From a virus (taxonomy: Duplodnaviria; Caudoviricetes), in the IMG/VR virus record IMGVR_UViG_3300036766_000591, positions 1 through 50,708 of that record: a stretch of 50,708 bases of DNA. One strand, written 5' to 3'. Positions 3,904-39,255 of the stretch are shown piece by piece; within the stretch, counting starts at the first letter, position 1, and every line of letters begins with the position of its first letter. Below the pieces are notes generated by a model. It had not been told where the DNA came from. It made no database searches and worked only from the letters and a program-made list of their open reading frames with translations. Position numbers and translations under genes: made by a program.

Positions 3904-5582
3904 GCGGCCTCCAGTCCGAGCGGGATCTGAGCCTCGGCGTCACGGATGCGCCGCTCGGCGATGGCGACATAGGCCGCCTCGCGCTCGATACCCAAGAAGC
4001 GGCGGCCTTCCAGGACGCACGCGACGCCGGTCGTGCCGGAGCCCATGAAGGGGTCGAGGGCGAGGCCCTGCGGCGGGGTGACGAGCCTAACGAGCCAGCG
4101 CATGAGGTCAACCGGCTTCACGGTGGGATGGTGATTGCGACGCGGAATGTCTACCACTTCGCGGCCCGTCATCGGGTTGATTTTGTGGCCTTCGGCGCCT
4201 ATTAGGACCACCATAGCCTCGCCATCCAGCCCCGCCTCGCGTTCGGCGCGGGACGCCTTCGCGCAGTAGAAGAAGCGCGAGGCGCCGCCGGAGTCGCCAG
4301 AGAAGTGACCCGACCTCTCACCCATTCTCTCGCCCATGTCGGTAGCCCGGCCCTGCCGTATTCCTCCGGGCTGCTTTTCGCCGCTCACCAAGTTCCCGCT
4401 CTGCGCGTCGAGCATCGCCGCCGCGTCCCCGTCCAGCACGACGTTCGCGGGCCAGCGGCCACTAAGCGATGCAGATGCAGCTGTCTCGGCTCCAGTGGCA
4501 GACATCCGGTATCCATCATGAGAGTGCTTCGCAGGGTCGAATCGAGTCATTTCTGGCTTCCCCGCAATCCGGCACGCCTCGATGTTCAGCGCCCCCGTGC
4601 CGTGCGCCGCCACGTTCGCCGCCACCGTGCCGATGAGTGGCTTGCGCGCGAGGATGATCGGCAGCCAATCAGGCGAGAGGTTGCTTTCCTCCGGGCCGGT
4701 TGCCTCGTCGGCAAACCTCCCGATAGCAAGCTCGCCCGCAGTAGTGGAGGCGAGTCTTTCGCACTTGGCAACCACGCTTCTGGAAATACCGACCGCAAGC
4801 GACGCATCGGACGCGACGCCACTTGTCGCGCTCAAGTCCGCGGTGGTGAAGGCGTGCGTGATCCGCGATAGGCACGACCGCAAGATTCTCAGGTCGGTTG
4901 TCAGCGCGCTCGCCGTTGCGGTGGTGTACCTGCTCCTGGGGTCCAAGAGGGCGCCCAAGCATCCGTTCAGCGACGACGCGATGCTCAAGAGCCCAGACGT
5001 TAGGAGCAAGTCGGATGAAGGCGTACCCATCTTTGCGGATGAAACGACCGTGCATAGGGCCTCCCTTGTCGTGGGAGCCAATATAGCCAGTTCTTCCTGC
5101 TCTGACAAGGGTTTACGCGCTAGTATCACGGGCTCGTGTGCTGGCTTGAGCGCCGTGCCCCAACCCTTCCACTCGCCGTCGAGGTTCAGCGACTTCGGGA
5201 AGCCGGAGCCGTAGAGCCAGCACAGACAGTCGCGAATCTCCCAGCCCGCATCCTCGATAGCGCAGGTCAGGCGGTGGAAGGTGCGCGTCCCGCCGAAGGC
5301 CAAGAGGTGCGCGCCGGGCTTCGCCACGCGCAGCACCTCAGACCACGTCTCGATGCCAGGGATCTCGGAGTCCCATGACTGGCCCATGAAGCCGCCGCCG
5401 GTGCCGATGCGCGAGCGTCCAGCGGGTGACGCTTCATTGCGCGACGCTTCGCCGCTCCCGCCCTTCTTGTTGGCGGTTAAGGCATACGGTGGGTCACAGC
5501 AAACGGCGTCCACGCTGCCCGGTGCCAGCGTCCGCAGCACGTCCAAGCAATCGCCGTGGATCACCCTCGCACGGTCGCTCAC
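3900..5582 (-). CDS. DNA N6-adenine/N4-cytosine methyltransferase (beta-class motif order) with an in-frame insertion of ~157 aa
   Basis: GDCLDVL, DPPY, GFPKS, GRWPAN, ASRFFYCAKA, HPTVKP, DPFMGSGTTG. GTG start at 5582 overlaps the upstream stop. Confidence 0.92.
   Translation of the reverse strand: MSDRARVIHGDCLDVLRTLAPGSVDAVCCDPPYALTANKKGGSGEASRNEASPAGRSRIGTGGGFMGQSWDSEIPGIETWSEVLRVAKPGAHLLAFGGTRTFHRLTCAIEDAGWEIRDCLCWLYGSGFPKSLNLDGEWKGWGTALKPAHEPVILARKPLSEQEELAILAPTTREALCTVVSSAKMGTPSSDLLLTSGLLSIASSLNGCLGALLDPRSRYTTATASALTTDLRILRSCLSRITHAFTTADLSATSGVASDASLAVGISRSVVAKCERLASTTAGELAIGRFADEATGPEESNLSPDWLPIILARKPLIGTVAANVAAHGTGALNIEACRIAGKPEMTRFDPAKHSHDGYRMSATGAETAASASLSGRWPANVVLDGDAAAMLDAQSGNLVSGEKQPGGIRQGRATDMGERMGERSGHFSGDSGGASRFFYCAKASRAEREAGLDGEAMVVLIGAEGHKINPMTGREVVDIPRRNHHPTVKPVDLMRWLVRLVTPPQGLALDPFMGSGTTGVACVLEGRRFLGIEREAAYVAIAERRIRDAEAQIPLGLEAA
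4669..5055 (-). CDS. HNH endonuclease (HNH_3-like) with a C-terminal zinc finger, nested in another frame of the methyltransferase
   Basis: DGY..., EHRVVAERMLGRPL..EQVHHRNGERADNRPENL, CVAC...YCGRAC; Shine-Dalgarno AAGGGAGG lies 4 nt before the ATG. Confidence 0.85.
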   Translation of the reverse strand: MHGRFIRKDGYAFIRLAPNVWALEHRVVAERMLGRPLGPQEQVHHRNGERADNRPENLAVVPIADHARLHHRGLERDKWRRVRCVACGRYFQKRGCQVRKTRLHYCGRACYREVCRRGNRPGGKQPLA

Positions 5583-6692
5583 GCCACACGCCCTTCGGCC
5601 TTGGCCGCCAGCGCGAGGTACGAATCCGCCAACTCGCGGAGCTGCGCGCGCGCCGAGTCGAAGCTCACGCGGTTCGCCGCGTCCGCCTTCTTGAGCGCGC
5701 GCTCGGCGCGACTGAGCGCGAACGCCGTGACGCTCGGCGTCTCGATGATCGGCAGGCCGCAATGCGCGCAGGGGGGTGGAGGAATCGTCTTCACGCGGGC
5801 GGCCCGTCCGGGGCGGGAGCCGCGAGCAGGGCGCGGGCGTGAAACGCGGCGTCCTCGCACATCGGCGCGAGTTGCCGGTCGCGCTCGTACCCGAGGTCGC
5901 GCATACGCGCGGCGGCGAACGTCAGGGCTTTCTCCGATTCGCGCAGCGCCGCGCGCAGCCGGTCGGCCTCCGCGCGGGCAGCGGCAACAACCTCGGTCAT
6001 ACCTGCCGCGCCTTCTTCGGCGTTGCGAGCGCGCCGCACGGCCTCGTCGTAGAGGTTCCGGCAGGCGGCGCGAGCCGCTTCGAGCGGCATGAAATCAGCC
6101 AGCCGATAGCCCGCCTCGGTGGCGCACTTGGCCTCGGACACGACGGCGGCCAGCGCCTCGCGGAAGGGGTCAGACATTCCGATATACCTCGGCGTTCGGG
6201 TGGCAGTACGGCGCGCGGTCGCTGTAGTGAGCGAAGTCGGTGGGCATGTAGCCGTTAGCGACCAGCCATGCGCGGCGCTGCTCGGGCGTAGCGAACGCCT
6301 TGAATATGCGGTCACGCTTCCCCGCTGGAACCGCGGGCGTCAGGAGCCAGAAGGGGCGTGCGATGGCCAGCGGCCAGTCGGATTGAATGAGCCGCGCAGG
6401 CTTCGGCTTACGCGGCATGGTCGGGCTCCGAGGTGAGGCTCGGTGTCGTGGGCGGCGCGGCCATCCATTCCCTCACGGCCTTCGCGTGGGCGCATTGGTC
6501 GTAGGAACCACAGGGCCCGCAGATCAGCAGCACCCGGTCGTCGCCCTCGTCGATGACGGGCCGCTTGCCGAACACGCGGGACGTGGTGCCGCTCGGGAGG
6601 TAGATGACGAGCCAGGCCGCGGTGGCGCCGATGCCCCGCTCGCGCGTGCTCAAGTCCACGGCGCGGACCGCGTAGGCCGCGAGGTTGGTCAC
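5579..6692 (-). CDS. Small early genes: 5579-5794 (CxxC), 5791-6177, 6170-6418, 6408-6692 (Cys/His, SWIM-like pattern)
   Basis: Overlapping coupled ORFs; CAHC and ICGPC...CAH patterns. Confidence 0.6.
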
Positions 6693-6831
6693 GCGCGCCC
6701 CCGTTGCCGCTTGCGCGCCCGCCGCTGCGCCTTCTCGCGCCGCAGGGCCAGCCGCCAGTCCTTGATGGTCCGGTAGTTGTGACTCGCGAGCCGCGGGGTG
6801 AACCGCTCATGGCCCGGCACGGGGACGCGCT

Positions 6832-7050: not shown

Positions 7051-7059
7051 GGGGAGACG

Positions 7060-7120
7060 AGAGTAGCGCACCAACTACCCTAGCGCAATAGCGCATATTG
7101 CCACAGTCTTGTGTGGCAAT
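7060..7120 (-). promoter_or_regulatory. Early promoter/operator region
   Basis: Minus-strand TTGCGC-N17-TACTCT lies 9 nt before the HTH ATG. Three TAGCGCA repeats (7064, 7081, 7089) and the inverted repeat ATTGCCACA-N6-TGTGGCAAT (7097-7120) are present. Confidence 0.65.
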
Positions 7121-7173
7121 TTGCAACGCTCTCCCGATGCCACGCACGGCGCCTGGGCGGCCCCGTGGCGGAC

Positions 7174-7767: not shown

Positions 7768-7778
7768 TTAGCCCCCTA

Positions 7779-11553: not shown

Positions 11554-12257
11554 GATCTGCTCTGGCCAACCGTTATGAAGTCAACCTGGAGAGTCCCCAC
11601 GCTCGCCGCCGCACTTTCTTTCCCGATGCGGATGACCGGCTGCAAGGCCAAGGCCGCCACTTGGTCCATGCGGAATGTGGTCGCGCTCGCGACCCGTGCG
11701 CCGTCGATGTAGAAGCGGATCGCGGCCGTGTCGTCTATCTCGATTCTCACAACCGTCCATTGATTGGCGACAAGCGTGACGCCGCTTGCGATGAGGCTTT
11801 GCTCATGCACCGTGTCGTCGCTCTCTAGGGTGATAGCCCCAGACCCATCCAACCTCGCCCAGATGCTTTCCGCCACCGTGTTGACGGCCGCGTTGTGGTC
11901 GCCACAGAGGCCGACGACCGCCACGACGGAGCCGGTCGGCAGCACCGTGAAGCGTACCCGCGCCTCGAAGAACAGCTTTTGGTTGAGCGTGAGTGTACGT
12001 TGATTGCCCCAGTCCACGCCCGCGAGCTGTATCTCGTTCGTCGCGTCGAGCGCCAGGGCATATACGCCGCTCGGCGCGTCCCCGATCATGGCCTCGCCGG
12101 CGCCGTTGGTGTCGCGCACGGTCCAGTGATCAGACTCAATGGGATCACCCAAGAAGTCGTCCTTGAACCACACCGGGCACAGCGCGCGGATCGTCTCGTC
12201 GGTGCTGCTGTCGAAATAATGAAGCCACCCGCCGAAATATCTTGTCTTGAGGCTCAT
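11550..12257 (-). CDS. Virion protein with a ConA/lectin-like beta-sandwich
   Basis: FKDDFLG, FFEARVRF, W..VRIEID...FYIDG, LQVDFI; likely start is the ATG at 12257. Confidence 0.65.
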   Translation of the reverse strand: MSLKTRYFGGWLHYFDSSTDETIRALCPVWFKDDFLGDPIESDHWTVRDTNGAGEAMIGDAPSGVYALALDATNEIQLAGVDWGNQRTLTLNQKLFFEARVRFTVLPTGSVVAVVGLCGDHNAAVNTVAESIWARLDGSGAITLESDDTVHEQSLIASGVTLVANQWTVVRIEIDDTAAIRFYIDGARVASATTFRMDQVAALALQPVIRIGKESAAASVGTLQVDFITVGQSRS

Positions 12258-12266
12258 ACCGACCCC

Positions 12267-12295
12267 TTGCTGGTAGCACGCGAGCGCGCTAGATT
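12267..12295 (+). promoter_or_regulatory. Promoter of antisense HNH cassette 1 (leaderless)
   Basis: TTGCTG-N17-TAGATT; the ATG is 7 nt after the -10 box. Confidence 0.6.
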
Positions 12296-12302
12296 TCCAC
12301 CC

Positions 12303-12443
12303 ATGAAAGCCATGTATTGCAAGCGGGGCCACCGCCTCACGAAAGCCAACCGCGCGCCGGACGGGCGCTGCCGCATCTGCCGCCGGAAGTTCGGCACGAT
12401 CCGCATGCGCGCGTACCGCAAACGGAAGCGGGCCGAGCCGTGA
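12303..12443 (+). CDS. 46-aa zinc-finger peptide (CxxGH...CxxC)
   Basis: MKAMYCKRGHRLTKANRAPDGRCRICRRK...; paralog at 15511-15645; GTGA overlap with the HNH gene. Confidence 0.75.
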   Translation: MKAMYCKRGHRLTKANRAPDGRCRICRRKFGTIRMRAYRKRKRAEP

Positions 12444-13021
12444 CGGGCGTGTTCGTGGCGTGGAATCCGAAGAAGCCTAACGGGCCCGGCTGGATCGAGG
12501 ACGGGAGCGGCTGCCACGTCTGGATTGGGGCCAGAGACAGAAAGGGCTACGGCCAAGTTCGCCAAGGACGCGGCAAGGGGAGGCTTCGATATGTGCATCG
12601 CGTCCGTTACGAACGCGAGATTGGGCCGATCCCCGACGGGCTTCCGCTCGATCATTTCGTCTGCAACAATGGCGCGGGAGGATGCTGTAATCCCCATCAT
12701 TGCCGGCCGGTCACGCGCCGCGAGAACGCACTCCGGAGCGAAAGCCGCGCCGCGACGAACGCCGCCAAGACGCATTGTCCGAGAGGCCACGCCCTTGTTG
12801 GCGACAACCTCATTGCGTCCAAACTGAGGCGGGGCCGTGAGTGCCGGACATGCAACACGAAAAGATGTGCCGAGCGTTACGCCGCCAACCGAGACACCGT
12901 GCTCGCACGGCGCAGGGCCTTGATGACACCCGCCAAACGGGAGGCCAAGAGGGCCAGCGACCGCGCCGCCTACCGCGCGAAACGTCCCGAGGTCAAGCGG
13001 CAAACGAGGTACAGTGAGTGA
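12440..13021 (+). CDS. HNH endonuclease with a C-terminal KTHCPxGH...CxxC zinc finger
   Basis: SGCHVWIGA..KGYG, HRVRYE..IGPIP.GL.LDH.VC...CCNPHH..PVT..EN. Confidence 0.9.
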   Translation: MTGVFVAWNPKKPNGPGWIEDGSGCHVWIGARDRKGYGQVRQGRGKGRLRYVHRVRYEREIGPIPDGLPLDHFVCNNGAGGCCNPHHCRPVTRRENALRSESRAATNAAKTHCPRGHALVGDNLIASKLRRGRECRTCNTKRCAERYAANRDTVLARRRALMTPAKREAKRASDRAAYRAKRPEVKRQTRYSE

Positions 13022-13026
13022 CACTC

Positions 13027-15465
13027 TCATCGCCATAACGTTAGGCTCAGTTGGCGTTTCGATGCATCTGGCTCCAGCCCAATTATGCGGAACGACGGCC
13101 CGCCCGCGAGCGCGTACCGGCTGTGCGTGAGGCTCACCACATCGCCGAGGTCCAGCGTCTCCGTCGTCGCGTGGTCCGAGTCCGAAGGCACGACGATGTT
13201 ATAGCGGTCGCGCTGCACGCCCCGGAGCGCCTGGCGTCGCGTCGCCTCCGTCAAGGCATTGGCCGCGAGGTAGATCAGCGAGTCCTCGACGGTCTGGGGG
13301 GCTAAGGGGTGAGCCAGTTGCACCGTCGTGTCCTCGGCCTTGGCCTCGCGCCACTCGGCGGCGAGGAACGCGCGCCGCGCGTCCGTCACGCCTCCGGCCA
13401 CGCCAGCGACTTGGACCGACCAATTTTTCGCATAACGGATCGTGGAGCGCCAGACCGGAAGGCCCTTCGTTTCATCGTTGACCGGCACGCGCTCAAGCGG
13501 CTTGAGGAGGTCATTGGCCGTGAAGTTGACGACGGGCGTCCCGCTCGGCGCGGTGAACTGCTTGATCCGCATGACGCCCGCGCGGTCGGCGCCCCACCAG
13601 GCGCCCACGGACTGCGCGATCCAATCGAGCACGTCGGCCACGGACCACTCGTCGGTCCCCGACCAGAAGCCCAAGACCGAGGCGTTCGCGGTATCGAGCG
13701 CGGCGATGTCCGCGCTGGAGAACTCTTGCAGCGGCGCGCCGAGCGGGTCGGAGAGCAGGCGCGCGAACATCTGGCCCGCCGTGCGGTCGGAGGCGGCGGC
13801 GCCCTCGGTCACGTCCGCGGTGATGAGCCCGGCGGGCGGGGAGCCGAGGCGGATGTAGCCGCCGGGGAGGTACGCCTTCCACAATCCAGCTAGAGGAGCC
13901 TTTGTATCATCGAGGAGGTCGGCGGCGTCCGCATAGGTCTGCGTCACTAGTCCAGTCGCATAGTAAATCTCTTGCACCTGCCCGATGACCGCAAAAGTAC
14001 TTGCCAGGGGAGTCCACGCGGACCCATCAGCAGATACCCCAATAACGCCGTCGTTATGTCCCGAGAGAAATATCTCCGCTGCGAAGGTGACTGTGACCAC
14101 CGTTGCACTCAGGGCCGTGGTACGCTTTGCCCATGTGAGACCATCGGCTGACCCCCAGAGCCCATCATAAGTTGCCTGCACCCATTGTCCTGCCCCATAG
14201 GCGACCCGTCCCGCCAAGGCGGCGCTAGCGGTGCGGGCGGTCCACGATGCCCCGTCGGTCGAGGTTGAGGTCTTGCCGCTTTGCCCCACCGCTACGAAGA
14301 GAGCGCCATTCCAGTTTACGTCGGCAATGTAGGAAGCGCCGAATTGGCTCGTATGGACGGTGAAGGTGATGAAATCGGTTGTTGAATAGAGCTTGCCCGC
14401 ATCACCGACGAATACCCAAAGGCTGTTGCCGTAAGCCGCCCCAAAAATACCGCTTCCCCCAAAGGGGTTCGGGAGAACCCCGAGAGCGTCGGCTACCATG
14501 GCCCACGTAACCCCATCCGACGAGGTGGCGATCTTGCCGCCGTTTCCGACTGCGACAAAGATACTGTTTCCGTAGGTCACGGCTTGGACATCGGCGGCGC
14601 CCCAATTCGTCAGCGTGCGCAAAGTCCAGAGAGTGCCGTCGGGAGACGAGTAGCATACTCCTCCCTGCGCTATCGCGACGATTGTTCCACCGCCGCAGGC
14701 AAAGCGCAGGTAGTTGCTGCTGATACTATTCAGGGGCGTTATCTGCTCCCACGTCTGTCCATCGGGCGAAGTGGCAGACCTCTGGATCAATCCGCCACCG
14801 TTTCCGTTCGCCAGCCAAGTAGACGAGCCCAGCGCGATTCCCTCATCGTAGGCCGCACCCACGCTCGCCACCGGCCCGTCGTTCACCTGATAGATGAGTT
14901 TGCTGGTGTTCGCGCAGGGCACGCTCACGTTGAGCACGGACCCGAACACGCGCGGTATCGGCTTCCCGGCCAGGTCGTCGGGCGTGCCGTCGAGTCCATC
15001 GGGGAGCGAGTTGGTGCCGCCGTACTTACGAGGCTGGAGCGGGACAGCGAGAGCCAGCATGTTGTCGCGGATTTTCAGGACCAGCGACGATTGCGAGGCC
15101 TCGATCTGTTCCGCTGTCCCCTCAAAGACGGTTTCGAATCCCGATGGATAAGCGGCCCCGACCATGCCACGCCTCACGATAACAGAACGCCCATCCCATC
15201 CATACCCGAGCCACGCATCCAAGGCGCCGTCTTCGTTGATTGCGACAAGGTCGCCGAACGACATCCGCGAGCGACCCGACGTAGTACTGCTGGAGAACAA
15301 GTCTCTTTTCAGTAATACGGGCTGGCGCAGTCGGCCATCATAATATGCGTTAGGCGGGACCTCAGTGGGCCGAGTCGCGAACCCGGTCGTCGAGAGACGG
15401 AGCGCGACGATTCCGACCGTGGCCGGGTCCCAGGGGCGCAGCTCCGCCACGTAGAGATCGGTCAC
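13027..15465 (-). CDS. Large tail protein (hub/tip) with an inserted beta-propeller of S.DG.TW repeats
   Basis: Lies after the tape measure; GKPIPRVFG; repeats SPDGQTW, SPDGTLW, SSDGVTW, STDGASW, SADGLTW, SADGSAW. Confidence 0.8.
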   Translation of the reverse strand: MTDLYVAELRPWDPATVGIVALRLSTTGFATRPTEVPPNAYYDGRLRQPVLLKRDLFSSSTTSGRSRMSFGDLVAINEDGALDAWLGYGWDGRSVIVRRGMVGAAYPSGFETVFEGTAEQIEASQSSLVLKIRDNMLALAVPLQPRKYGGTNSLPDGLDGTPDDLAGKPIPRVFGSVLNVSVPCANTSKLIYQVNDGPVASVGAAYDEGIALGSSTWLANGNGGGLIQRSATSPDGQTWEQITPLNSISSNYLRFACGGGTIVAIAQGGVCYSSPDGTLWTLRTLTNWGAADVQAVTYGNSIFVAVGNGGKIATSSDGVTWAMVADALGVLPNPFGGSGIFGAAYGNSLWVFVGDAGKLYSTTDFITFTVHTSQFGASYIADVNWNGALFVAVGQSGKTSTSTDGASWTARTASAALAGRVAYGAGQWVQATYDGLWGSADGLTWAKRTTALSATVVTVTFAAEIFLSGHNDGVIGVSADGSAWTPLASTFAVIGQVQEIYYATGLVTQTYADAADLLDDTKAPLAGLWKAYLPGGYIRLGSPPAGLITADVTEGAAASDRTAGQMFARLLSDPLGAPLQEFSSADIAALDTANASVLGFWSGTDEWSVADVLDWIAQSVGAWWGADRAGVMRIKQFTAPSGTPVVNFTANDLLKPLERVPVNDETKGLPVWRSTIRYAKNWSVQVAGVAGGVTDARRAFLAAEWREAKAEDTTVQLAHPLAPQTVEDSLIYLAANALTEATRRQALRGVQRDRYNIVVPSDSDHATTETLDLGDVVSLTHSRYALAGGPSFRIIGLEPDASKRQLSLTLWR

Positions 15466-15474
15466 GCCGCGCTC

Positions 15475-15503
15475 TTGACACTAGGCCGGTAGTGGCTTAC
15501 ACT
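15475..15503 (+). promoter_or_regulatory. Promoter of antisense HNH cassette 2 (leaderless)
   Basis: TTGACA-N17-TACACT; the ATG is 7 nt after the -10 box. Confidence 0.8.
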
Positions 15504-15510
15504 TCCCGCC

Positions 15511-15645
15511 ATGAGACGCACGCATTGCAACCGAGGCCACCGCCTGACATCCGCCAACCGCCTAGCAGACGGGCGCTGCGCGAAGTGTCGCCGCAAGTCA
15601 GCCGCGCGATACATGCGCGGGTATCGGAAGCGGGCCGCCAAATGA
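15511..15645 (+). CDS. 44-aa zinc-finger peptide (CxxGH...CxxC)
   Basis: MRRTHCNRGHRLTSANRLADGRCAKCRRK...; paralog of 12303-12443; ATGA overlap with the HNH gene. Confidence 0.75.
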   Translation: MRRTHCNRGHRLTSANRLADGRCAKCRRKSAARYMRGYRKRAAK

Positions 15646-16151
15646 CGGGCGTCTTCGTGGCATGGAGCCGTTATCGCAATTCCCCTGGCTGGATCGAGGA
15701 CGGGTCGGGGTGCCATATCTGGATCGGCGCGCGAAGCCAAGACGGCTACGCCCACGGATGGGATGCCGAGAACCACTGCAACGGCGCTATCCATCGCATT
15801 CGCTATCGGCGCGAGGTCGGCCCGATTCCCGTCGGCATGGAACTCGACCACTATGTTTGCAGCAATGGTGCCGGGGGCTGCTGCAACCCGCACCACTGCC
15901 GGCCGGTGACGCCTCGCGAGAACTCGCTCCGTAGTGGGGCGCAATCTTCGCTCAACGCCGCGAAGACGCATTGCCCGCAGGGCCATCCGCTGTCCGGGGA
16001 GAATCTCATCAAGTACTATGTCGAGAGACGCGGAATGCGATGCTGCCGAACCTGCGGCCAGCAAGAACGGCGGCGCTACAAGGCGGCACACCGCGAAGAG
16101 CGCCGCGTCAAGGCTCGGGCATACCGCCTCGCCCGCCGAAAGGCCGCCTAA
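15642..16151 (+). CDS. HNH endonuclease, paralog of 12440-13021
   Basis: MTGVFVAW...PGWIEDGSGCHIWIGAR, LDHYVC.NGAGGCCNPHHCRPVT, KTHCPQGH. Confidence 0.9.
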   Translation: MTGVFVAWSRYRNSPGWIEDGSGCHIWIGARSQDGYAHGWDAENHCNGAIHRIRYRREVGPIPVGMELDHYVCSNGAGGCCNPHHCRPVTPRENSLRSGAQSSLNAAKTHCPQGHPLSGENLIKYYVERRGMRCCRTCGQQERRRYKAAHREERRVKARAYRLARRKAA

Positions 16152-16154
16152 CCT

Positions 16155-16478
16155 ATGCGCTACCTGCTGCTTGTCCTGCTCTTGGCGGGCTGCTATGCGG
16201 ACCCGACCGCGCCGCCCGCCGTCCAGCCTAACGCGGCGCCCGCGATTCTGTTTACGAATGGCTGCGGCTTCACGGCAGGGTTCAGCCTGTTCGTGGATGA
16301 CGCCGCGCCGGAAATGTTCTTGATCGCGGACAGTGGCGCCGTCGAGAAGCGCGTCCTCGCCGGACGACACGCGGTCCAGTACATCGCCTTCGACGGGAAC
16401 GCCAAGCCGCTGGCGGTTCGTCGCGACTCCCTGACCGTTCTCGGCCCGACGCCCTACATCATGCGCTGCGCGCCGTAG
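16155..16478 (+). CDS. Predicted lipoprotein (moron)
   Basis: Signal peptide II with a lipobox: MRYLLLVLLLAG-C. Confidence 0.8.
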   Translation: MRYLLLVLLLAGCYADPTAPPAVQPNAAPAILFTNGCGFTAGFSLFVDDAAPEMFLIADSGAVEKRVLAGRHAVQYIAFDGNAKPLAVRRDSLTVLGPTPYIMRCAP

Positions 16479-16480
16479 GC

Positions 16481-18835
16481 TCATACCTTCAGCCCTTCCA
16501 GCACGAGGGCCAGCTTCCGCGCGTTGTCCTGCGCCTCGGCCCGGAGTGCGACAACCTCCTCCGTCAACTGCGTGAAGCCCGCCAGCAGTAGGGCGCTCTG
16601 CTGCTGCGACTCTAGGACGAGCGGATCGTCCAATGCCGTCTTGGGCGGCTTCCCGTCGAGCGGCGGGGGCGGCGGGAAGCCCGGGGGTGTGCCCCCGTCC
16701 TTGGGCGGCTTGAGGAACACGCTCGTGTTGTCCTGAATCGCGACGAGCGCATCCAACATCTGCTGCTGGATGCTGCGCTGGCCCTCGAAGATCTTGGCGA
16801 TGGCGTCCGTGTCGGCCAGGACGCGCGTGAAGTCCACGGCGTACCGGCCGCCGGAGGCGTTCACCGCCCGCGACGCCGCGAGGAACGCCTGCGCCACCTG
16901 CGGCAAGCGGCCCGCCGCCGTCTGGTCCCCGGTCTGCGCCTGCGCCAAGACGGCTTCGTACTGCCGCCGTGCCTCGGCGAGTTGCTGAATAGGCGAGAGC
17001 GTCGTGAGCGGCCCGGTGCGGAGCGAGGTCTGGAAGTCGCGCAGCGAATCAATCGTGGTCGTCAGGCCCGCGATGGTCGCCTTGATCTTGTCGGCCGCGA
17101 AGCGGATCGCCTCGGCGCGCTGCACTTCCACGAGTGTCGCCCGCTCCTGGGCGTCGGCACCCGCCAGCACGGCATCGGCATACTCGCGCTGCTGCTGGAG
17201 CGCGAAGGCCATCGCGTCGGCTTCGGCGTCATGGCCCTGGGCGCGGAGCATCCGCACGGCGAGGTCTTCGATGCGCTGCTGGCGCAGGATGGCCGCCTCT
17301 TCGCGCAAGTGTATGACGCGGATGGCTTCCAGAAACGCAATCTCGACAAGGCGGCGTTCGTATTCCGCCTGCGCGGCAGCGTTGGCCGCGCGGTTCGTAC
17401 CCTGAAAACCTGGACCGACGCCCGCGCGCACGGCAGCGGCCTCCGCACGCAACCGGGCCGCGTCGTCATGCGCTTGGCGGATAGCCGCCTGGAGGCCGGT
17501 ATCCGTTCCGGCCACGGCGCGGCGGAATGCATCGAGGTCATCGGTGAATTGCTTCAGCGCCTCAGCCTGGAGTCGCCGTGCCTCGCGAACGCGCGCCGCG
17601 CTACCGAACAGGTCACTGACGAATCCGCCGATAGCGTTCCCCACCAGCGCGAGCCCGCCCGCGACCGTGCTGAAGCCGACGAGCGACTGAAGCGCCGAGC
17701 CACCTATCGCGCCACCAATCCCGCTCCCGCCCGGCATGGTCCTGTCGCCTCCAGGAGCACCGCCACGCGATCCGCCCGTCGCGGCCTTGGCTGCCTCCTG
17801 CTCCGCGGCGATGAGCTTCATGGCCGCGACGACGTTCGCGTTCGCCTCCTCACGCCATAGCCGCAGCGCCTTCGCCTGGGCTTCGAGGGAGGCCGTCAGT
17901 TCCGCGTTCGCGCGGAGCTGGAGCGCGGCGGTCGCCGTGGCCGTGTTGCGAAGGCTGGCGTCGAACATCTCCAGCGCCCGACGGTGGGCTTCGATGCCCT
18001 CCTTCGCCTGCTCGTGGGCCGCAGCCGAAGCGTGCTGGGTTCGCGCCTCATGGCCCGCCGCCACGTCGAGCGCGTTGATCGCGGCGGTCAGTCGCGTGTT
18101 GTCTTCGGTCAGTCGAATGACATCCGCGGCATTAGCCAGCGCGCCGACGTTGGCGCCGACGCGGAATCGCGACGGGTCGGTGATGGAGACATCCGTGCGA
18201 GCCTGGGCTTGCGCCAATGCCGCACGATTCACCGCCAACTGTACCGCCAGGAGGGTCCGATTCTTGGCAAGCAACTTCTCGACTTCGTCGTTCGTATCCC
18301 CGATCGCCCCATTGAGGAGTTGCCAGGCGGCGGCAAAGGCCGCGAGGCCCGACAGGATGCCGACAAGCCAGGGATTCCCCAGCGCGAACACCTGAAGCCG
18401 GGCGGCGGCCATCGCGATGCCGCCAATGCCGCGCGAGGTCACCAGGGCCGCCGCCTCGGATGCGACCCCGAACGCCTCAAACCCCTGGGCGCCGCGGCGC
18501 GCATCCATCGTCACCGCGCGCAGGCCCCGGTTCACCTGGTTCCCCACCGCGGCCAGCCGCTCCTGTGTCTTGCTCGTCATCTCGGTTGTGGTCGCCAGCG
18601 AGGCCATGTCGGCCTTGAGGGTGCGGAGCCCGGCCGCGTATTCCACTTCCGTCATCCGGCCGATGCGGTAGGACTGGGTGAGTGTCGTCAGTCGGCTTTG
18701 GAGTGCGGTGACGGCGGCCGAGGCCGCCTCCATCTGCTGCGCGGTGCCCGTGACGGCGCGCTGCGCCCGTTGCATCTCGGTGTGAAATGCCGTGGTCTCC
18801 GCAGCAATCCTCACCATCAGCGTGGCAGCGATCAT
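16481..18835 (-). CDS. Tape measure protein
   Basis: 784 aa, Ala-rich and helical; N-terminus IAATLMVRIAAET..F; follows the tail chaperones. Confidence 0.88.
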   Translation of the reverse strand: MIAATLMVRIAAETTAFHTEMQRAQRAVTGTAQQMEAASAAVTALQSRLTTLTQSYRIGRMTEVEYAAGLRTLKADMASLATTTEMTSKTQERLAAVGNQVNRGLRAVTMDARRGAQGFEAFGVASEAAALVTSRGIGGIAMAAARLQVFALGNPWLVGILSGLAAFAAAWQLLNGAIGDTNDEVEKLLAKNRTLLAVQLAVNRAALAQAQARTDVSITDPSRFRVGANVGALANAADVIRLTEDNTRLTAAINALDVAAGHEARTQHASAAAHEQAKEGIEAHRRALEMFDASLRNTATATAALQLRANAELTASLEAQAKALRLWREEANANVVAAMKLIAAEQEAAKAATGGSRGGAPGGDRTMPGGSGIGGAIGGSALQSLVGFSTVAGGLALVGNAIGGFVSDLFGSAARVREARRLQAEALKQFTDDLDAFRRAVAGTDTGLQAAIRQAHDDAARLRAEAAAVRAGVGPGFQGTNRAANAAAQAEYERRLVEIAFLEAIRVIHLREEAAILRQQRIEDLAVRMLRAQGHDAEADAMAFALQQQREYADAVLAGADAQERATLVEVQRAEAIRFAADKIKATIAGLTTTIDSLRDFQTSLRTGPLTTLSPIQQLAEARRQYEAVLAQAQTGDQTAAGRLPQVAQAFLAASRAVNASGGRYAVDFTRVLADTDAIAKIFEGQRSIQQQMLDALVAIQDNTSVFLKPPKDGGTPPGFPPPPPLDGKPPKTALDDPLVLESQQQSALLLAGFTQLTEEVVALRAEAQDNARKLALVLEGLKV

Positions 18836-28110: not shown

Positions 28111-28114
28111 CGGG

Positions 28115-28330
28115 CTAGGACTCCTTCCGGCGCATGAGCGCCGCCAGCACGGGACCGAGCCAGGCGTGGGCGGCGAGGATGAGGCCCACCGCCGGCCAGC
28201 GGCCGAAGCCCGCGCCATAGAGGGCGAGCCCACCGTAGAACTCCAGCTCGCGCACGCCGAAGCCCACCAGGCCCCAGCCCGCGAGAAGTCCGCGGCCGAC
28301 GGCGCCCAGCGCCGCGCGCAAGCGCCTCAT
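28115..28330 (-). CDS. Small membrane protein between terL and portal
   Basis: Hydrophobic 71 aa; ATGA-coupled. Confidence 0.65.
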   Translation of the reverse strand: MRRLRAALGAVGRGLLAGWGLVGFGVRELEFYGGLALYGAGFGRWPAVGLILAAHAWLGPVLAALMRRKES

Positions 28331-30033: not shown

Positions 30034-30419
30034 GCGGTCAGGGCTCCGAACTGGTTGGCCTTCGCCTTGCTCTTGCCACCCGGCACCTTCACCTTCGACC
30101 GGCTCCCGGCCATCCCGCCCAGGTCGGAGAGATAGCCGCGGAAGACGGCCCACTCCGACGCGCTCCCGCCGCTCTTCCGCAGGACGGCGTGCTGCTTCGC
30201 GGCGGCCCAGAGCGCCGTCCGGTCGGCCCGACCAAGCCACGGCATGTCGCCCGCCAGCTCCAGCCACCGCGCCCGCTCGGCCTCGTCGAGGTCGGCCGGC
30301 GGATCGCCGAGCGGCTCGTCGACGACCGGCTCGTCCGCGCGCTCGGCCAAGCGTTCTGGGTGCTTCCGGAAGGAGCCCCGGAGCTTCAGAACGCGCGTTG
30401 GGGTGCGGGGGCGGCCCAT
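30030..30419 (-). CDS. terS: Terminase small subunit (P27-like)
   Basis: MGRPRTPT..LKLRG, PP..L...W, LG....SR; coupled to terL. Confidence 0.8.
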   Translation of the reverse strand: MGRPRTPTRVLKLRGSFRKHPERLAERADEPVVDEPLGDPPADLDEAERARWLELAGDMPWLGRADRTALWAAAKQHAVLRKSGGSASEWAVFRGYLSDLGGMAGSRSKVKVPGGKSKAKANQFGALTA

Positions 30420-30454
30420 TAGTCAGCCCCGAGGCCCGCTTTGGGTAATGGAGG

Positions 30455-30520
30455 CAAGTGAAGGGCGCCCGCGCGCGGTCACACTCCAGTAGCCATGAAG
30501 TTCTTGGCCACCCCTTAACT
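30455..30520 (-). other. Candidate cos region
   Basis: Non-coding gap upstream of terS in an HNH-terS-terL (P27/HK97-type) module, containing GGGGTGG...GACCGCGCGCGGG; inferred from position only. Confidence 0.35.
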
Positions 30521-30541
30521 CCTTGTGCCTGGGCACTTGCC

Positions 30542-31438
30542 TCACATGCAGGCCGAGAACGTGCTGTTGCACAGGCGGCGCTGCTCATCTGAGGGGTGCT
30601 GCTCACATCCGTTAACTGCAACTTCAAGCGGCACGGCCGAGCGGTGCAGGAACGTGTCGGGGAACTGCCGCTGTAGGCTCAACTCCAGCCGCACGGCGCG
30701 CTGAAAGTCGCCGGGAGCCCTTGCGGCCAATCGCCGCCAGTCTCCGGTCGTGCGGTGCGGACACATCCAACAGGACGTGCGCTCCGGGACGGGCCAGCCG
30801 GCGCTAGTGATGAGATCCACGCAAGCGGCGCGATCGAGGCCGCGCTCGATTAGCGGCCATCGCAACCGGACCCACTTGTTCTGGTCGGGTTTCGCGCGTT
30901 GCGTCTCATCGGCGGCAATGCCGATCCATTGCTCACAGGCACGCACTCCCCGCGCGCGCAGCCATCGCTTCGTCACCCTAGCCTTCCATGGGCCCGAGCA
31001 GCGCGTGCCGAGTTTCGCAATCGTGCCGTCTGCCTTGCGCCTGTAGGCGGGTATCACAAGGTGGTCGTTCTTGACTAGCACGTTGTCACCGTGATCCACG
31101 GTCTTGAGGATGGTTATGAGAACTCCAGCCTCGGCCAACTTCGGGGCCAGCACGGTCCTCGCGTAATCCCATGTAGTCTCGGGCTCGTAGCCCACGTCCA
31201 CCATGATGGCGTAGTCCGGCCTTGGCAACAAACCCTGGCAAATGAGCACCGCAACGGCGGTAGAATCGACCCCGCCTCCGCATGACCAAACAATCGTTCG
31301 GTCGCGCGTCCCGTTGCGCGCTTCAATGATCGCGCCTGTCGTTATGTTCGCGCAACCTTGTGAACAGTACCGCCGCCGCCTGTGCGTCGAAGCGAACTCG
31401 GCGCCACATTGCACGCGCTGACATACGAGCGTCATCAC
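30542..31438 (-). CDS. PAPS-reductase-like PP-loop protein with an N-terminal zinc finger
   Basis: VWSCGGGVDS PP-loop, D.GYEP..TW.Y, WIGI..DE..R, WPLI, SCWMCP; N-terminal C..C...YCSQGC. Confidence 0.75.
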   Translation of the reverse strand: MMTLVCQRVQCGAEFASTHRRRRYCSQGCANITTGAIIEARNGTRDRTIVWSCGGGVDSTAVAVLICQGLLPRPDYAIMVDVGYEPETTWDYARTVLAPKLAEAGVLITILKTVDHGDNVLVKNDHLVIPAYRRKADGTIAKLGTRCSGPWKARVTKRWLRARGVRACEQWIGIAADETQRAKPDQNKWVRLRWPLIERGLDRAACVDLITSAGWPVPERTSCWMCPHRTTGDWRRLAARAPGDFQRAVRLELSLQRQFPDTFLHRSAVPLEVAVNGCEQHPSDEQRRLCNSTFSACM

Positions 31439-31839
31439 GTGAGGCTCCGCGCGAGCGGTCCCACGTCCACGAAGCCTGTGCCGGTGACCACGAGGAGCTG
31501 ACGCCCCACCCGCTCGGCGTGGCGCTTCTTGCCATGACAGGAGGCGCAGAGCCCTTGCTGGTTGTCGAGGTCATCGGCCGCGCCGCCCGCCTCGATGGGC
31601 ACGATGTGGTCATCCACGGTCGAGGGCGTCGTGCGACCGACGGCGAGACACGCCACACAGAGCGGGTCGCAGGCCAGGACGATGCTGCGCCTTCTCCGGT
31701 GCTCGCTGCCGTACCCGCGCGAGGCGGCGCTGCCGCGTGCCTGCTCGCGCGCACGTCGGTGGTCAGCACAGCGCCCGCCCGACGTCGTGGTGTAGCGACA
31801 GCCGGGCTCCAGGCAGGGTCTCGCGGGGCGCATCGGCAT
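31435..31839 (-). CDS. Packaging-associated HNH endonuclease (HK97 gp74-like)
   Basis: PC..PGC, RG.AASRGYG, PLCVAC, DHIVP...GG...N.QGLC.SCH. Confidence 0.9.
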   Translation of the reverse strand: MPMRPARPCLEPGCRYTTTSGGRCADHRRAREQARGSAASRGYGSEHRRRRSIVLACDPLCVACLAVGRTTPSTVDDHIVPIEAGGAADDLDNQQGLCASCHGKKRHAERVGRQLLVVTGTGFVDVGPLARSLT

Positions 31840-36354: not shown

Positions 36355-37281
36355 CTACTCCTGTTCGATCTCGGTGATCTTCGCGCGCAGCGCCGCTGCC
36401 TGCTCGGCGTCGCCCGCCCGCTCGGCCTTCTCGGCATTCTGCCGCAGCGGGGCGGTTAGGGCGGCTGTCGCGGCGCTGCGGTCCACCTTCGTCAAGCGTT
36501 TCTCTCCGCTGCGCGAGGCGGCACCCGCGCGGCGATGCTCCTGGTCCTGCTCGAATGCGTCCAGCACGGCGCCCACGAAGTACCGGAGCGCGCGCGGCTG
36601 GGTGTTGCGCCCGTTAGGCCGGTAGGCACGGGCCTTCTCGGCGATGATGCGTTCGGCGAAGGCGATCGGCACGCCCGCCGCGGTGAGGTCGGCGGCAGCG
36701 GCATGCTGCGCGCTCGTCACCAGCTCGTTGAACTGCCCACCGAGGGCGGCAGCGAGCCCGCGGTTGGCGGCGACGGTACACCGCTGCGCGTAGGAAAGGC
36801 TGTCCGGGGATGGCTGTTGCGGTTCAGCGACAGTACCACCCTGCGGCTCGCGCGCGGCTGTTGCTTCTTCTGTCTCTGTCTCTGGCTTTGTTGAGCCGGG
36901 CTTAAGCCGGGCTTGAGCACTCCTCAAGCCCCCCTTGCGGCCGGATTCAGCGCGCCGCCCAGCCTCAAGTTGTTGGGCCTCCGCGATTTGCAGAAGTTTG
37001 GGATTGGCGAGACGCCCCTCGAGGGTCGGGTGCGGTTTGAAGCAGTCCTTGACCACTCCTCGCAAATCAGCCACTTCGACCGTTCCACCGAGTTCGCCGC
37101 TTGAAGCAAGCCTCAAGGAACGCTCAAGCCGGGCTTGACTCGCCGGGATGCTCCCTTCGAGCCACTGAAGACAGAGGAGCCGGAGGTAGACGCCCTGCTC
37201 GGCGAAGGTCATGGCGAGCACCTTCTCGTCGGTCATCCAGTCGCGGACGTAGAAGGGGAACCAGGCCAGCTTCTCGCTCAT
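36355..37281 (-). CDS. Replication initiator, YdaU/DUF1376-like
   Basis: AWFPFYVRDWM.D...M...EQGVY.RLL..QW..GS.P; KGG; ETETE linker. Confidence 0.82.
   Translation of the reverse strand: MSEKLAWFPFYVRDWMTDEKVLAMTFAEQGVYLRLLCLQWLEGSIPASQARLERSLRLASSGELGGTVEVADLRGVVKDCFKPHPTLEGRLANPKLLQIAEAQQLEAGRRAESGRKGGLRSAQARLKPGSTKPETETEEATAAREPQGGTVAEPQQPSPDSLSYAQRCTVAANRGLAAALGGQFNELVTSAQHAAAADLTAAGVPIAFAERIIAEKARAYRPNGRNTQPRALRYFVGAVLDAFEQDQEHRRAGAASRSGEKRLTKVDRSAATAALTAPLRQNAEKAERAGDAEQAAALRAKITEIEQE
36891..37138. repeat. Iteron-like AGCCGGGCT repeats inside the initiator gene (candidate origin)
   Basis: Copies at 36894 and 36905, and within the near-palindrome TCAAGCCGGGCTTGA (37124-37138). Confidence 0.5.
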
Positions 37282-37517
37282 CGCGCGCCCTTCTTGCGGT
37301 TGCAACGCCGACACAGGATGGCCCAATTCGAGGCGTCGTCTGCCCCGCCGCGGGCAAGTGGAACGACGTGATCCACCTCGGGGAAGTTCGGCTCACTCAG
37401 CGCGGAGCGGCCGCTCTCGGCGGTGACCGACAGCGTGACGCCACACGCAGGGCACTTCCAGCCCGCGGCCTCGATGAGCCGGATCCATGTCCTGTGGTCG
37501 ATGTTCTTCCTTCTCAC
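37278..37517 (-). CDS. HNH endonuclease (79 aa)
   Basis: CPACG...EVDHVVPLARGG.D..SN..ILC..CN.KKG. Confidence 0.88.
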   Translation of the reverse strand: MRRKNIDHRTWIRLIEAAGWKCPACGVTLSVTAESGRSALSEPNFPEVDHVVPLARGGADDASNWAILCRRCNRKKGAR

Positions 37518-37804
37518 GCGGCCGTTCTCCTTCGCGTCTCGATCTTCCCGCGGAGCTCCGGGTAGCGGTCGAGCAGCTCGTCGCTGATGCGCGAGCGGTA
37601 GGAGTTGTCACAGTGGATCTTGAGCGCGCCGCGGGTTTGGGCGACGAGCAGGTTGACCTCTACCCGCTTGGCGCCGCTCCGCGCCAGCGCGATCGCGCGG
37701 ACGGCGACCGCCTCGAAGACCCGCTCGCCCTCGTCGCTGGCGCGCCAGCGCGCATAACGTTGCGACAGCGCGTCGCGGAGCGGGAGCGCGAGCTGCGCGG
37801 TCAC
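37514..37804 (-). CDS. Hypothetical early protein
   Basis: GTGA-coupled; KI..NSY...YPEL...ETR. Confidence 0.6.
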   Translation of the reverse strand: MTAQLALPLRDALSQRYARWRASDEGERVFEAVAVRAIALARSGAKRVEVNLLVAQTRGALKIHCDNSYRSRISDELLDRYPELRGKIETRRRTAA

Positions 37805-39255
37805 GCGGCACCTTCGATCTGGTCGATGGCCGCGAAGATGGCCCACGCCACGGCGGGCACGATGGCGTTTCCGACGAGACGGCATCCCGCCGCGCGGTTG
37901 GGCATCCCGCTCACGACGGGCCAGCGATTCTCGCAGCCGCCACCGAACGCAAAGGCTTCCACGATGTTGTCGCTTTCACGCGACCGGGAATAGTCCAACC
38001 AAGCTTCCATTGCCTGTGGTGCCAGCGCATGTGGCAGGGCCCGCACACGACCTGCAAGTTCTGCCGCGCGCTGTTCGCGGGATCGCCATCCATGTGATGG
38101 ACTTGGAGTCCCGCAGTAGCGGCACAGACTTCGCATTTCTCCAGCCTGCCCACCGTCTGTCGCGCGATGGTCTTCCACCGCCCATAACTGCGTACCGGAC
38201 GGGAATTCGCGCACGAAAGCGAGCAGAACCGCCTCCGCCGAAAGACACCGTAGTCCTCCAGTCGGCCACTGATCCGCTTGCGCGTCATCGGCACACCGCA
38301 CCACTGGCAGGGCTTCAAAGGCGCTGGCTTCACTGGCATGGGCACCTAACGCCGTCCTTTCTTCTGGCGGAGATACACGACATTCAACCAGCCAGCGGGA
38401 AAACCCATCAACCAAGCTCCGAAATTGGGATTGTACGCCGCCCGCTGGCCCGTCGGTTTCGCCGTCGCCGCCGCTAAGCTGAGGTTGTGATTGCCCTTGA
38501 TCCCCTCGAACGCCTTCACCTCGCCCGGCTTCGGCGGGGACGAGCCTAACGGTGCCATCCGCCCCTCGGATGGCAACGGCGTCGGCCCAAGGCGCGAGAA
38601 GTTGACCGATTGTCGGCCCAGCAGCGCATTCTCTAGCACGCCTGCCACACTCGCTCCGTCCTTCCCGTCCCGCGTCGTCGGCGTCGCCCAACCCGCTAGC
38701 GCGTCCTCCAGTTTCCGTATCCCGCCGACCAGCGTCTTCCGCTCTGCCTGGCCACCCCCCGTTGGCGTCTTGGGCGTGGGCCACGATCCAGACCCGTTCC
38801 CGGCGGTGGGGGGCACCAACGTCGGCCGCGGCGACACTGTCCCACGTCGCATCGTACCCGAGGCGGGCCAGGTCTGAGAGAACTTCGCCGAACGCACATC
38901 CGTCGTTGACGGAAAGCAGTCCAGGGACATTCTCGAAAAGGCACCAGCGGGGTCGAAGCTCCCCAACGCATCGGGCGACTGCGGGCCAGAGCCATCGGCT
39001 ATCGCTCGTGCCCAACCGTCGGCCAGCGTGGGAAGCGGGCTGGCAGGGGAAGCCGCCAGCGAGGATGTCGGGTCGCTCAACGCTGCTCCAGTCCACCGTA
39101 GTGAGGTCGCCCACGTTCCGCGCCTCGGGGAAATGATGTGCCATGACCCGACACGCCCACGGCTCGATCTCCGAGTACCATGCCGTCGTCCAGCCTAACT
39201 GACGGGCCGCGAGATCGAAGCCTCCTTGGCCTGCACACAGCGAACCCAGCCTCAC
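37801..39255 (-). CDS. DNA C5-cytosine methyltransferase, alpha polypeptide (motifs I-VIII and X)
   Basis: GSLCAG.GG, GGFPCQP, FENVPG, GAPHRRERVW, GNAIVP; GTG start at 39255. Confidence 0.9.
   Translation of the reverse strand: MRLGSLCAGQGGFDLAARQLGWTTAWYSEIEPWACRVMAHHFPEARNVGDLTTVDWSSVERPDILAGGFPCQPASHAGRRLGTSDSRWLWPAVARCVGELRPRWCLFENVPGLLSVNDGCAFGEVLSDLARLGYDATWDSVAAADVGAPHRRERVWIVAHAQDANGGWPGRAEDAGRRDTETGGRASGLGDADDAGREGRSECGRRARECAAGPTIGQLLAPWADAVAIRGADGTVRLVPAEAGRGEGVRGDQGQSQPQLSGGDGETDGPAGGVQSQFRSLVDGFSRWLVECRVSPPEERTALGAHASEASAFEALPVVRCADDAQADQWPTGGLRCLSAEAVLLAFVREFPSGTQLWAVEDHRATDGGQAGEMRSLCRYCGTPSPSHGWRSREQRAAELAGRVRALPHALAPQAMEAWLDYSRSRESDNIVEAFAFGGGCENRWPVVSGMPNRAAGCRLVGNAIVPAVAWAIFAAIDQIEGAA
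37911..38345 (-). CDS. HNH endonuclease with an N-terminal zinc finger, nested in the +1 frame of the C5 methyltransferase
   Basis: CQWCG...FCSLSCAN; CEVC...QVHHMDGDPANS..NLQVVC..CH..WH. Confidence 0.82.
   Translation of the reverse strand: MPMPVKPAPLKPCQWCGVPMTRKRISGRLEDYGVFRRRRFCSLSCANSRPVRSYGRWKTIARQTVGRLEKCEVCAATAGLQVHHMDGDPANSARQNLQVVCGPCHMRWHHRQWKLGWTIPGRVKATTSWKPLRSVAAARIAGPS
38346..39080 (-). CDS. C5 methyltransferase beta-like polypeptide in the +1 frame (WPTP repeats, motif IX)
   Basis: WPTP/WATP and NPNFGAWLMGFPAGW; TTG start with a GGAG RBS; arrangement as in M.EcoHK31I. Confidence 0.7.
   Translation of the reverse strand: MSDPTSSLAASPASPLPTLADGWARAIADGSGPQSPDALGSFDPAGAFSRMSLDCFPSTTDVRSAKFSQTWPASGTMRRGTVSPRPTLVPPTAGNGSGSWPTPKTPTGGGQAERKTLVGGIRKLEDALAGWATPTTRDGKDGASVAGVLENALLGRQSVNFSRLGPTPLPSEGRMAPLGSSPPKPGEVKAFEGIKGNHNLSLAAATAKPTGQRAAYNPNFGAWLMGFPAGWLNVVYLRQKKGRR

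Follow-up and report, generated by a model that had tools for sequence, protein, structure and literature searches.

A design in which an HNH endonuclease gene lies hidden, out of frame, inside a DNA methylase gene is not new, since it was published in 2025 as the ShiLan domain (Arsenault, Gosselin & Gogarten 2025, PMC11855218). According to the part of that report available to us, the domain lies in the mycobacteriophage methylase gp65 without any stop in the methylase frame, and its HNH gene, which uses another frame, begins with a GTG 18 bp into the insert and ends on TAAC. The first 11 residues of the domain resemble those after the site, the domain is predicted to form a loop, no intron or intein signals are reported, and leaderless initiation was proposed because no ribosome-binding site could be detected (PMC11855218). 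A second hidden HNH-like open reading frame (ORF), in a different methylase, is described in section 3.6 of the same paper for Pacc40 gp60. As far as the available sections go, the published basis of the design is a handful of mycobacteriophages and is descriptive. Here we describe two such inserts, one in an N6/N4 and one in a C5 DNA methyltransferase gene, in the virus record IMGVR_UViG_3300036766_000591 of IMG/VR, together with two HNH cassettes in the tail operon of the same genome. The whole record, 50,708 bases at about 68% GC, was analysed and is called the window below. What is added to the published picture is quantitative evidence of selection for an open host frame, drawn from dozens of lineages of 27 to 70% GC in two unrelated element families; signs of mobility, the N6/N4 elements being far younger than their host genes; a putative internal Shine-Dalgarno start that is common, so that leaderless initiation need not be invoked; and the coexistence of the hidden-HNH design with a two-frame methylase. 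Gene callers label such loci as a single long methylase and miss the nuclease.

The N6/N4 element of the window and the ShiLan domain have in common the methylase family, the site after a TALKP motif, a homologous HNH in the same relative frame, an open host frame, duplicated residues and the lack of splicing signals. Earlier work on the ShiLan-type methylase element was reportedly done by Gosselin et al. in 2023 (PMC9957025). The two elements differ in that the HNH of the window has no N-terminal zinc finger, that its host is an uncultured sediment phage of 68% GC and not a mycobacteriophage, and that it has a clear Shine-Dalgarno sequence and an ATG, whereas no ribosome-binding site was found according to the available part of the paper (PMC11855218). 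The C5 element can be likened to Pacc40 gp60, by the description in section 3.6 and not by sequence, in that with either of them the design is not confined to a single methylase family or a single site; it differs in that its host is a two-frame alpha/beta methylase, where it uses the beta frame and begins right after the stop of beta. A methylase of this kind is M.EcoHK31I, in which, according to the accessible text, the beta chain is encoded in another frame of the alpha gene and the alpha chain contains motifs I-VIII and X (PMC2836561). Likewise, the alpha frame in the window has the catalytic motifs and motif X, and an ORF in a second frame matches methyltransferase families; unlike M.EcoHK31I as presented in that text, the product of the beta frame is long and has WPTP-type repeats, and the gene also hosts an HNH insert.

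The tail cassettes resemble the free-standing homing endonuclease genes of T4-type phages in being HNH genes between host genes. Among the T4-type seg and mob genes, coupling through stop/start overlaps is discussed for mobE, and segD is antisense to its neighbours (PMC2988022, available in part). No ORF that bridges such a gene on the host strand is described in that part, and the T4 nucleases come from other families. With inteins and group I introns the methylase inserts share a selfish nuclease inside a conserved gene, at a conserved motif and without destruction of the gene; unlike them, they have no detected splicing apparatus, their nuclease is out of frame, and their host frame is selected to stay open, which spliced elements do not need. 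We assume with good confidence that the elements belong to two classes, namely hidden HNH inserts in the methylase genes and free-standing, backward-oriented HNH cassettes in the tail operon. In the first class, each insert is 471 nucleotides (nt) long, consists of whole codons and sits at a conserved motif, with a homing-type HNH gene in one frame and no stop in the host frame. It is proposed that ribosomes read the methylase through the insert without interruption, giving a single chain enlarged by a loop of about 157 residues, and that the nuclease is made from an internal start, which in the N6/N4 gene would be the ATG behind the Shine-Dalgarno site and in the C5 gene GTG 38345 or ATG 38339. 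In the C5 gene, the HNH lies in the beta frame behind the beta stop, and the alpha frame runs through it to motif X. The proposal presumes that the elements home by cleavage and repair and that the interrupted methylases keep their activity.

The N6/N4 methylase insert and its relatives

The positions of the features are collected in Table 1. The earlier note on this DNA had placed two HNH ORFs out of frame within methylase ORFs, and both were confirmed, with both host ORFs fully open. In the N6/N4 gene, whose true start is probably near 5580, the insert follows the TALKP motif when aligned with the uninterrupted Petp2012 gp60, and a methylase codon begins at position 2 of the HNH codon. A Shine-Dalgarno-like AGGGAGG is located at 5066-5060, 4 nt ahead of the HNH ATG, and the TGA of the HNH gene sits just ahead of the resumed native methylase motif. 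Moreover, the insert opens (5132-5106) with a copy of the motif that follows it (4661-4635). The two copies agree at 8 of 10 residues and at 17 of 27 bases, and the upstream one has A/T-ending codons, in line with the duplication of a recoded target motif that the earlier note had suggested. Inserts at the same place are present in Filuzino gp74 and Cr-LKS3 g59, each with an out-of-frame HNH ORF that is missing from the annotation. In tblastn searches, the HNH of the window matched ShiLan gp65, Mantra gp64, Starcevich gp66 and Filuzino gp74, and the N and C parts of the methylase, searched in the same way against ShiLan gp65, showed TALKP followed by the insert in both genes and the same relative frames. 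The published GTG start, 195-aa product and TAAC end of the ShiLan HNH were reproduced here. As judged from these matches, the N6/N4 element is a new member of the published ShiLan-domain family.

In the window, chance was assessed by shuffling the synonymous codons of each HNH ORF and counting the stops in the host frame. With the codon usage of the phage, the probability of a stop-free host frame is 0.65 for the N6/N4 insert, 0.39 for the C5 insert, and 0.56 and 0.48 for the tail cassettes; with shuffling within the ORF, the respective values are 0.60, 0.015, 1.0 and 1.0. In addition, long off-frame and antisense ORFs are ubiquitous in the window at 68% GC. Because a stop-free host frame is expected by chance (P 0.39-0.65 per element under phage codon usage), the window alone cannot show selection and the evidence must come from relatives; it comes from family censuses of the two methylase inserts.

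A profile made from three HNH sequences found 129 relatives in IMG/VR, and among the best 80, which were kept, 59 are flanked by both the N and the C part of the methylase, 5 by the C part only and 16 by neither. Together with the window, Filuzino and Cr-LKS3, these 59 give 62 filled N6/N4 loci. The N and C parts of the methylase are in one frame in all 62, the HNH has the same relative frame in 61, and the methylase frame is stop-free inside the HNH ORF in 60, against 9.6 expected from synonymous shuffles within the ORF. The third frame of these loci contains 2-28 stops, and the pattern is kept by loci of low GC content (38-44%), for example with 0 against 16 stops in L020 and 0 against 28 in L052, both at 38% GC. 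When the loci are clustered at 90% identity, the host frame is stop-free in 41 of 42 clusters (6.9 expected), and at 70% identity in 27 of 28 (4.0 expected). Taken over its full length of 468-1857 nt, the insert is stop-free in 58 of the 62 loci, the exceptions being L009, L025, L034 and L056. No constraint on the methylase-frame peptide beyond the avoidance of stops was seen, the third-position share being 0.57 in the HNH and 0.49-0.61 in the flanking exons. The insert of the window is, with its 157 codons, the shortest of 59 measured. The start of the insert resembles the residues after the site (at least 5 of 10) in 19 of 59 loci, in a search whose range missed the site in many others.

The element and its host gene differ clearly in divergence. 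Over 108 pairs of loci, which are non-independent and were chosen by an HNH identity of 75-98%, the divergence per site at codon positions 1, 2 and 3 is 0.12, 0.06 and 0.24 in the HNH, 0.20, 0.14 and 0.52 in the N part of the methylase, and 0.32, 0.30 and 0.60 in its C part. The N6/N4 element is thus much younger than the genes that host it, which fits horizontal spread. As for the expression of the nuclease, a Shine-Dalgarno-like motif precedes an in-frame start of the HNH in 47 of 61 loci, compared with a control rate of 0.11 per position and 3.1 candidate starts per locus. Even in ShiLan itself, a GGAGG is found 4 nt before a second GTG of the hidden HNH (position 2057 of L183). From such motifs, an ordinary internal start seems likelier for the hidden HNH than leaderless initiation.

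Contigs of two sediment runs, one of them from the likely source sample, join position 3909 to 5597 with 5 other letters between. Variants without any of the N6/N4 methylase gene thus coexist with the filled form, as would suit a host gene that can be dispensed with. A contig joint of low confidence from 4603 to 5227 was also seen and was not used, and among the contigs of the sediment DNA runs no joint was found that cleanly removes a methylase insert or a tail cassette. The same methylase is also split near its C end in Daenerys gp61-gp63 (L001, 580-2485) and ShiLan gp67 (L183, 3271-3522), where the last conserved motifs are on a separate small gene.

The C5 methylase insert in a two-frame gene

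The alpha chain of the C5 methyltransferase has its catalytic motifs at about 39252-38763 and its motif X at 37914-37804, and its frame runs through both the overlap with the beta ORF and the HNH gene. Its N part corresponds to positions 2-166 of PF00145, its C end contains a motif X-like GNAIVP, and motif IX can be assigned to neither frame alone. The beta ORF, which has WPTP-type repeats, matches phrog_1008 both over the first 105 aa, where it overlaps alpha (E 2.5e-12), and over the remainder (E 2.4e-6), and it ends on a TAG directly before the HNH gene. The insert of 471 nt lies between the repeated heptamers 38397-38391 and 37926-37920. By it, beta gains a short new tail and the TAG, the HNH follows directly in the frame of beta and uses the former beta stop as its own, and alpha is lengthened by 157 residues ahead of motif X. 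The C5 and N6/N4 elements are separate lineages. The relatives L093 (58% GC) and L094 (45% GC) likewise have the alpha N part in one frame and beta followed by the HNH in the next, and return to the alpha frame for motif X; in L094, a run of 448 codons in the alpha frame contains no stop, while the third frame has about 30.

It could be argued that this gene is a frameshifted or broken composite, for example at the G6 run 38762-38757, in which the HNH splits the gene and the open frame is an accident of high GC content. The dominant coding frame is indeed the beta frame (+1), at 38760-37980 by GC content at third codon positions (GC3) and at 38790-37911 by GC3 and homology together, and the open run of frame 0 across the HNH has a P of 0.39 under the codon usage of the genome. 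Nevertheless, the two-frame layout with an open alpha frame recurs in relatives down to 42-45% GC, the product of frame +1 matches a phage methyltransferase family also within the stretch shared with the catalytic domain, and M.EcoHK31I is a documented two-chain enzyme whose beta chain uses another frame of the alpha gene (PMC2836561, as far as available). The composite reading, which we consider hardly credible, was rejected since the relatives keep a conserved two-frame layout.

A wider scan of IMG/VR with the C5 HNH found 108 relatives, and the best 80 of them with L093, L094 and the window give 83 loci, including two repeat contigs of L093 and L094. The frame of motif X is stop-free through the HNH in 79 of the 83, against 0.5 expected, and the other frame in 1 of the 83. 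At the level of clusters, 49 of 53 are stop-free at 90% identity (0.3 expected) and 24 of 27 at 70% identity (0.2 expected). The alpha N part is in the frame of motif X in 60 loci, including the window, 19 have another upstream layout, and 4 have no alpha match. The depletion of host-frame stops relative to synonymous shuffles, which the earlier note had proposed as a test on homologs from viral metagenomes, is found in both families (60/62 against 9.6 and 79/83 against 0.5).

A different explanation takes the inserts for unrecognised introns or inteins, or for stretches skipped by ribosomal bypass, that are absent from the active enzyme, in which case the open frame would be irrelevant. It would suit this explanation that the insert opens with a copy of the residues after it, which the authors of the ShiLan report, in the part available, call reminiscent of group I intron guide pairing (PMC11855218), and the RNA search covered known families only. 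However, a spliced insert needs neither whole codons nor an open frame, and the loci that are stop-free in the two censuses keep both, far above expectation. Furthermore, the HNH does not share the frame of the host and so cannot be an intein domain. The whole window has 0 matches in Rfam at gathering thresholds (known RNA families only), and Pfam, again for known families only, found nothing other than methylase domains on the N6/N4 host ORF and no Hint or intein family on either host ORF, so that the absence of intron and intein hallmarks stated before is upheld. The authors of PMC11855218 likewise found no intron or intein signals, according to its available part. We regard removal of the inserts as very improbable and prefer translation of the methylases straight through them.

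Some observations weigh against translation through the insert as a general rule. Host-frame stops occur in four N6/N4 loci, namely L025 (4, upstream of the HNH), L034 (1), L009 (1, where the N part begins) and L056 (41, with a different frame), and one occurs in each of the C5 loci L139, L140, L148 and L160. The 19 C5 loci of type B (e.g. L100-L103 and L105-L108) differ upstream of the HNH. The N6/N4 host frame of the window, taken alone, is not unusually stop-free (P 0.60-0.65), and the census loci were gathered with an HNH query and are mutually related, for which clustering corrects only partly. In the type B loci, the catalytic N part ends before the HNH, and it is the frame of the beta-like match that stays open across the HNH as far as motif X. 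As a separate observation, the C5 methylase DotProduct gp64 (L085, 1003-2994) has an in-frame insert of about 170 residues compared with Filuzino gp68, and this insert contains an out-of-frame ORF (1388-1843) with a LAGLIDADG-like motif (PF00961, E 0.002, below the cut-off). It may represent the same design with another nuclease family.

HNH cassettes in the tail operon

The two tail cassettes are free-standing HNH genes between host genes, are antisense to the tail operon and are paralogs with a mean column identity of 77%. The small zinc-ribbon-like ORFs whose stops overlap the HNH starts could encode a separate DNA-binding chain or a frame-shifted N-terminal domain. The promoter-like site of cassette 2 is located 7 nt before its first ORF and reads against the tail operon, and the aligned site of cassette 1 is weaker. 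The 107-aa lipoprotein-like ORF has no family match and, from its predicted features, may be cargo or a gene of the superinfection-exclusion type.

On the opposite strand, each cassette is spanned by a stop-free ORF that is joined to both neighbouring genes by 4-nt overlaps, as had been described before. The in-frame ATG of bridging ORF 1 shares bases with the stop of gene 13027-15465, and the stop of this ORF does so with the ATG (12257) of the gene that comes next. Both bridging ORFs are codon-aligned mirror frames and have no family match in Pfam, PHROGs and NCBIfam. A mirror frame is open if the sense gene has no TTA, CTA and TCA, and these account for only 60 of 9891 codons in the real genes here. 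Inside real genes of the phage, the mirror frame is open in 35-50% of windows of 235-340 codons, and all three codons are absent from 7 of the 8 HNH or cargo ORFs tested. Because open mirror frames are the default at this base composition, the open bridge frames are no evidence, and the stop-free opposite strands are mostly a mirror-frame effect of high GC3. The proposal of the earlier note, that HNH genes here spare their hosts without introns or inteins by keeping the host frame stop-free, is strongly supported for both methylase inserts and no more than suggestive for the tail cassettes.

There are also points that weigh against such a dismissal of the bridges. At each of the four junctions, stop and start overlap by 4 nt and are in phase with a frame that is open throughout, which chance explains poorly. 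About 60 codons per bridge are outside the protection of the mirror frame and yet open (P ~0.25 for cassette 1, an approximate value). A rough estimate of chance per cassette is ~0.002, or ~0.01 if the overlap tetranucleotides are taken as given. The label of a by-product may thus be too dismissive for the bridges. It is tentatively considered, at somewhat less than even odds, that the bridges are translated and kept open by selection, with ribosomes restarting at the overlapping ATG, crossing the cassette and handing over at ATGA or GTGA. As the earlier note had supposed, a translated bridge would possibly, with the same reserve on our side, preserve translational coupling and avoid polarity of the Rho type. 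In addition to the junctions and the unprotected codons, it is in favour of translation that no clear Shine-Dalgarno sequence precedes the 812-aa tail gene, whose start may depend on coupling, that in the distant relative L090 the tape-measure gene directly abuts the homolog of the 812-aa gene with no gene at the junction, and that sense-oriented HNH homologs (L175, AluminumJesus and CN1A) are coupled to both neighbours by 4-nt overlaps. On the other hand, besides the default openness of the mirror frame and the lack of a family match, ATGA-type ends are common in the phage (at 13 of 34 stops and at 16 of 34 starts), the cassettes, being paralogs, do not count as two independent cases, no relatives with the same layout were found in the collections searched, and this example was chosen post hoc out of a very large scan. 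Conceivably, but in our opinion rather doubtfully, antisense HNH cassettes persist because the opposite strand is kept as a translated, otherwise meaningless bridge, so that the flow of ribosomes survives an insert of 0.8-1 kb. If this were true, the bridge would be an intergenic, opposite-strand counterpart of the hidden-HNH design, and the principle would extend from inside genes to between coupled genes. A literature search for a bridging ORF over an antisense endonuclease gene gave nothing relevant.

Two profile scans of IMG/VR for relatives of the tail HNH yielded only L092/L176 and L175, all of them sense-oriented and in unrelated contexts. Among named phages, tblastn with the tail HNH matched 121 records, and the two examined (AluminumJesus and CN1A) are sense-oriented. 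For the 812-aa tail gene, the viral, genome and metagenome collections gave only proteins with 25-31% identity and no empty or filled tail alleles, and neither the antisense layout nor a close empty allele of the cassettes was found in any collection searched.

The record and its other genes

The record comes from a sediment metagenome and is of siphophage type, with nearly all genes on the minus strand. The earlier note had treated it as containing a 43.8-kb circle, which found no support: the ends are linked only by a 135-nt repeat and some short, diverged stretches, the record is listed as linear in IMG/VR, and the part from 43.9 to 50.7 kb is not a copy of the record start. The direct repeat (98% identity) is located at 1-135 and 43807-43941, with a spacing of 43,806 nt, and could mark element ends or attachment sites instead of a circle overlap. 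The count and the positions of seven HNH genes are borne out by matches to PF13392 and PF01844, and PHROG HNH families match all seven.

Table 1. Positions of the features in the window (HTH, helix-turn-helix)
Feature	Position	Strand	Matches and remarks
N6/N4 (beta-class) DNA methyltransferase ORF	3900..5762	-	PF01555, E 1.8e-26 in two stretches; open across the insert
ShiLan-type insert	4662..5132	-	471 nt = 157 codons
Hidden HNH gene in the N6/N4 methylase	4669..5055	-	128 aa; PF13392, E 2.6e-12; 14 PHROG HNH families
C5 DNA methyltransferase, alpha chain	37801..39375	-	PF00145, E 4e-41; phrog_363, E 2e-62 (N part) and 6e-4 (C piece)
Beta chain ORF	38346..39080	-	+1 frame, overlapping alpha; phrog_1008, E 2.6e-22 (whole ORF)
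Second hidden HNH gene	37911..38345	-	144 aa, beta frame; phrog_1271, E 4.3e-9; PF13392, E 2e-3 (below cut-off)
Tail cassette 1	12258..13026	+	HNH from GTG 12440 to 13021; phrog_826, E 4.3e-35
Zinc-ribbon-like ORF, cassette 1	12303-12443	+	46 aa; stop overlaps HNH start (GTGA)
Bridging ORF 1	12254..13036	-	codon-aligned mirror frame of the cassette 1 HNH
Junctions of bridging ORF 1	13030-13027, 12257-12254		ATGA, ATGA
Tail cassette 2	15466..16480	+	HNH 15642-16151; phrog_826, E 1.2e-31
Promoter-like site, cassette 2	15475-15503	+	TTGACA-17-TACACT, 10/12 match, sigma-70-like
Zinc-ribbon-like ORF, cassette 2	15511-15645	+	44 aa; stop overlaps HNH start (ATGA)
Lipoprotein-like ORF	16155-16478	+	107 aa; lipobox signal peptide; GC3 0.86; directly behind the cassette 2 HNH
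Bridging ORF 2	15462..16484	-	340 codons; from tape-measure stop (ATGA) to start of gene 13027-15465 (GTGA)
Junctions of bridging ORF 2	16484-16481, 15465-15462		ATGA, GTGA
HNH_3 matches	4852-4983(-), 12587-12730(+), 15789-15926(+), 38046-38114(-), 39877-39927(-)		PF13392; the last weak
HNH matches	within 31435-31839(-) and 37278-37517(-)		PF01844
Tape measure	16481-18835		Pfam and PHROGs
Capsid	23907-25325		Pfam and PHROGs
Protease	25569-26471		Pfam and PHROGs
Portal	26479-28233		Pfam and PHROGs
Large terminase	28327-30627	-	Pfam and PHROGs
Tail tube, chaperone genes, RecT, HTH regulator, lysin			Pfam and PHROGs

The terminase ORF encodes 766 aa, and its family matches begin only near residue 200. 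Upstream of it, the ORF 30542-31438 on the minus strand matches a PAPS-reductase-like PHROG.

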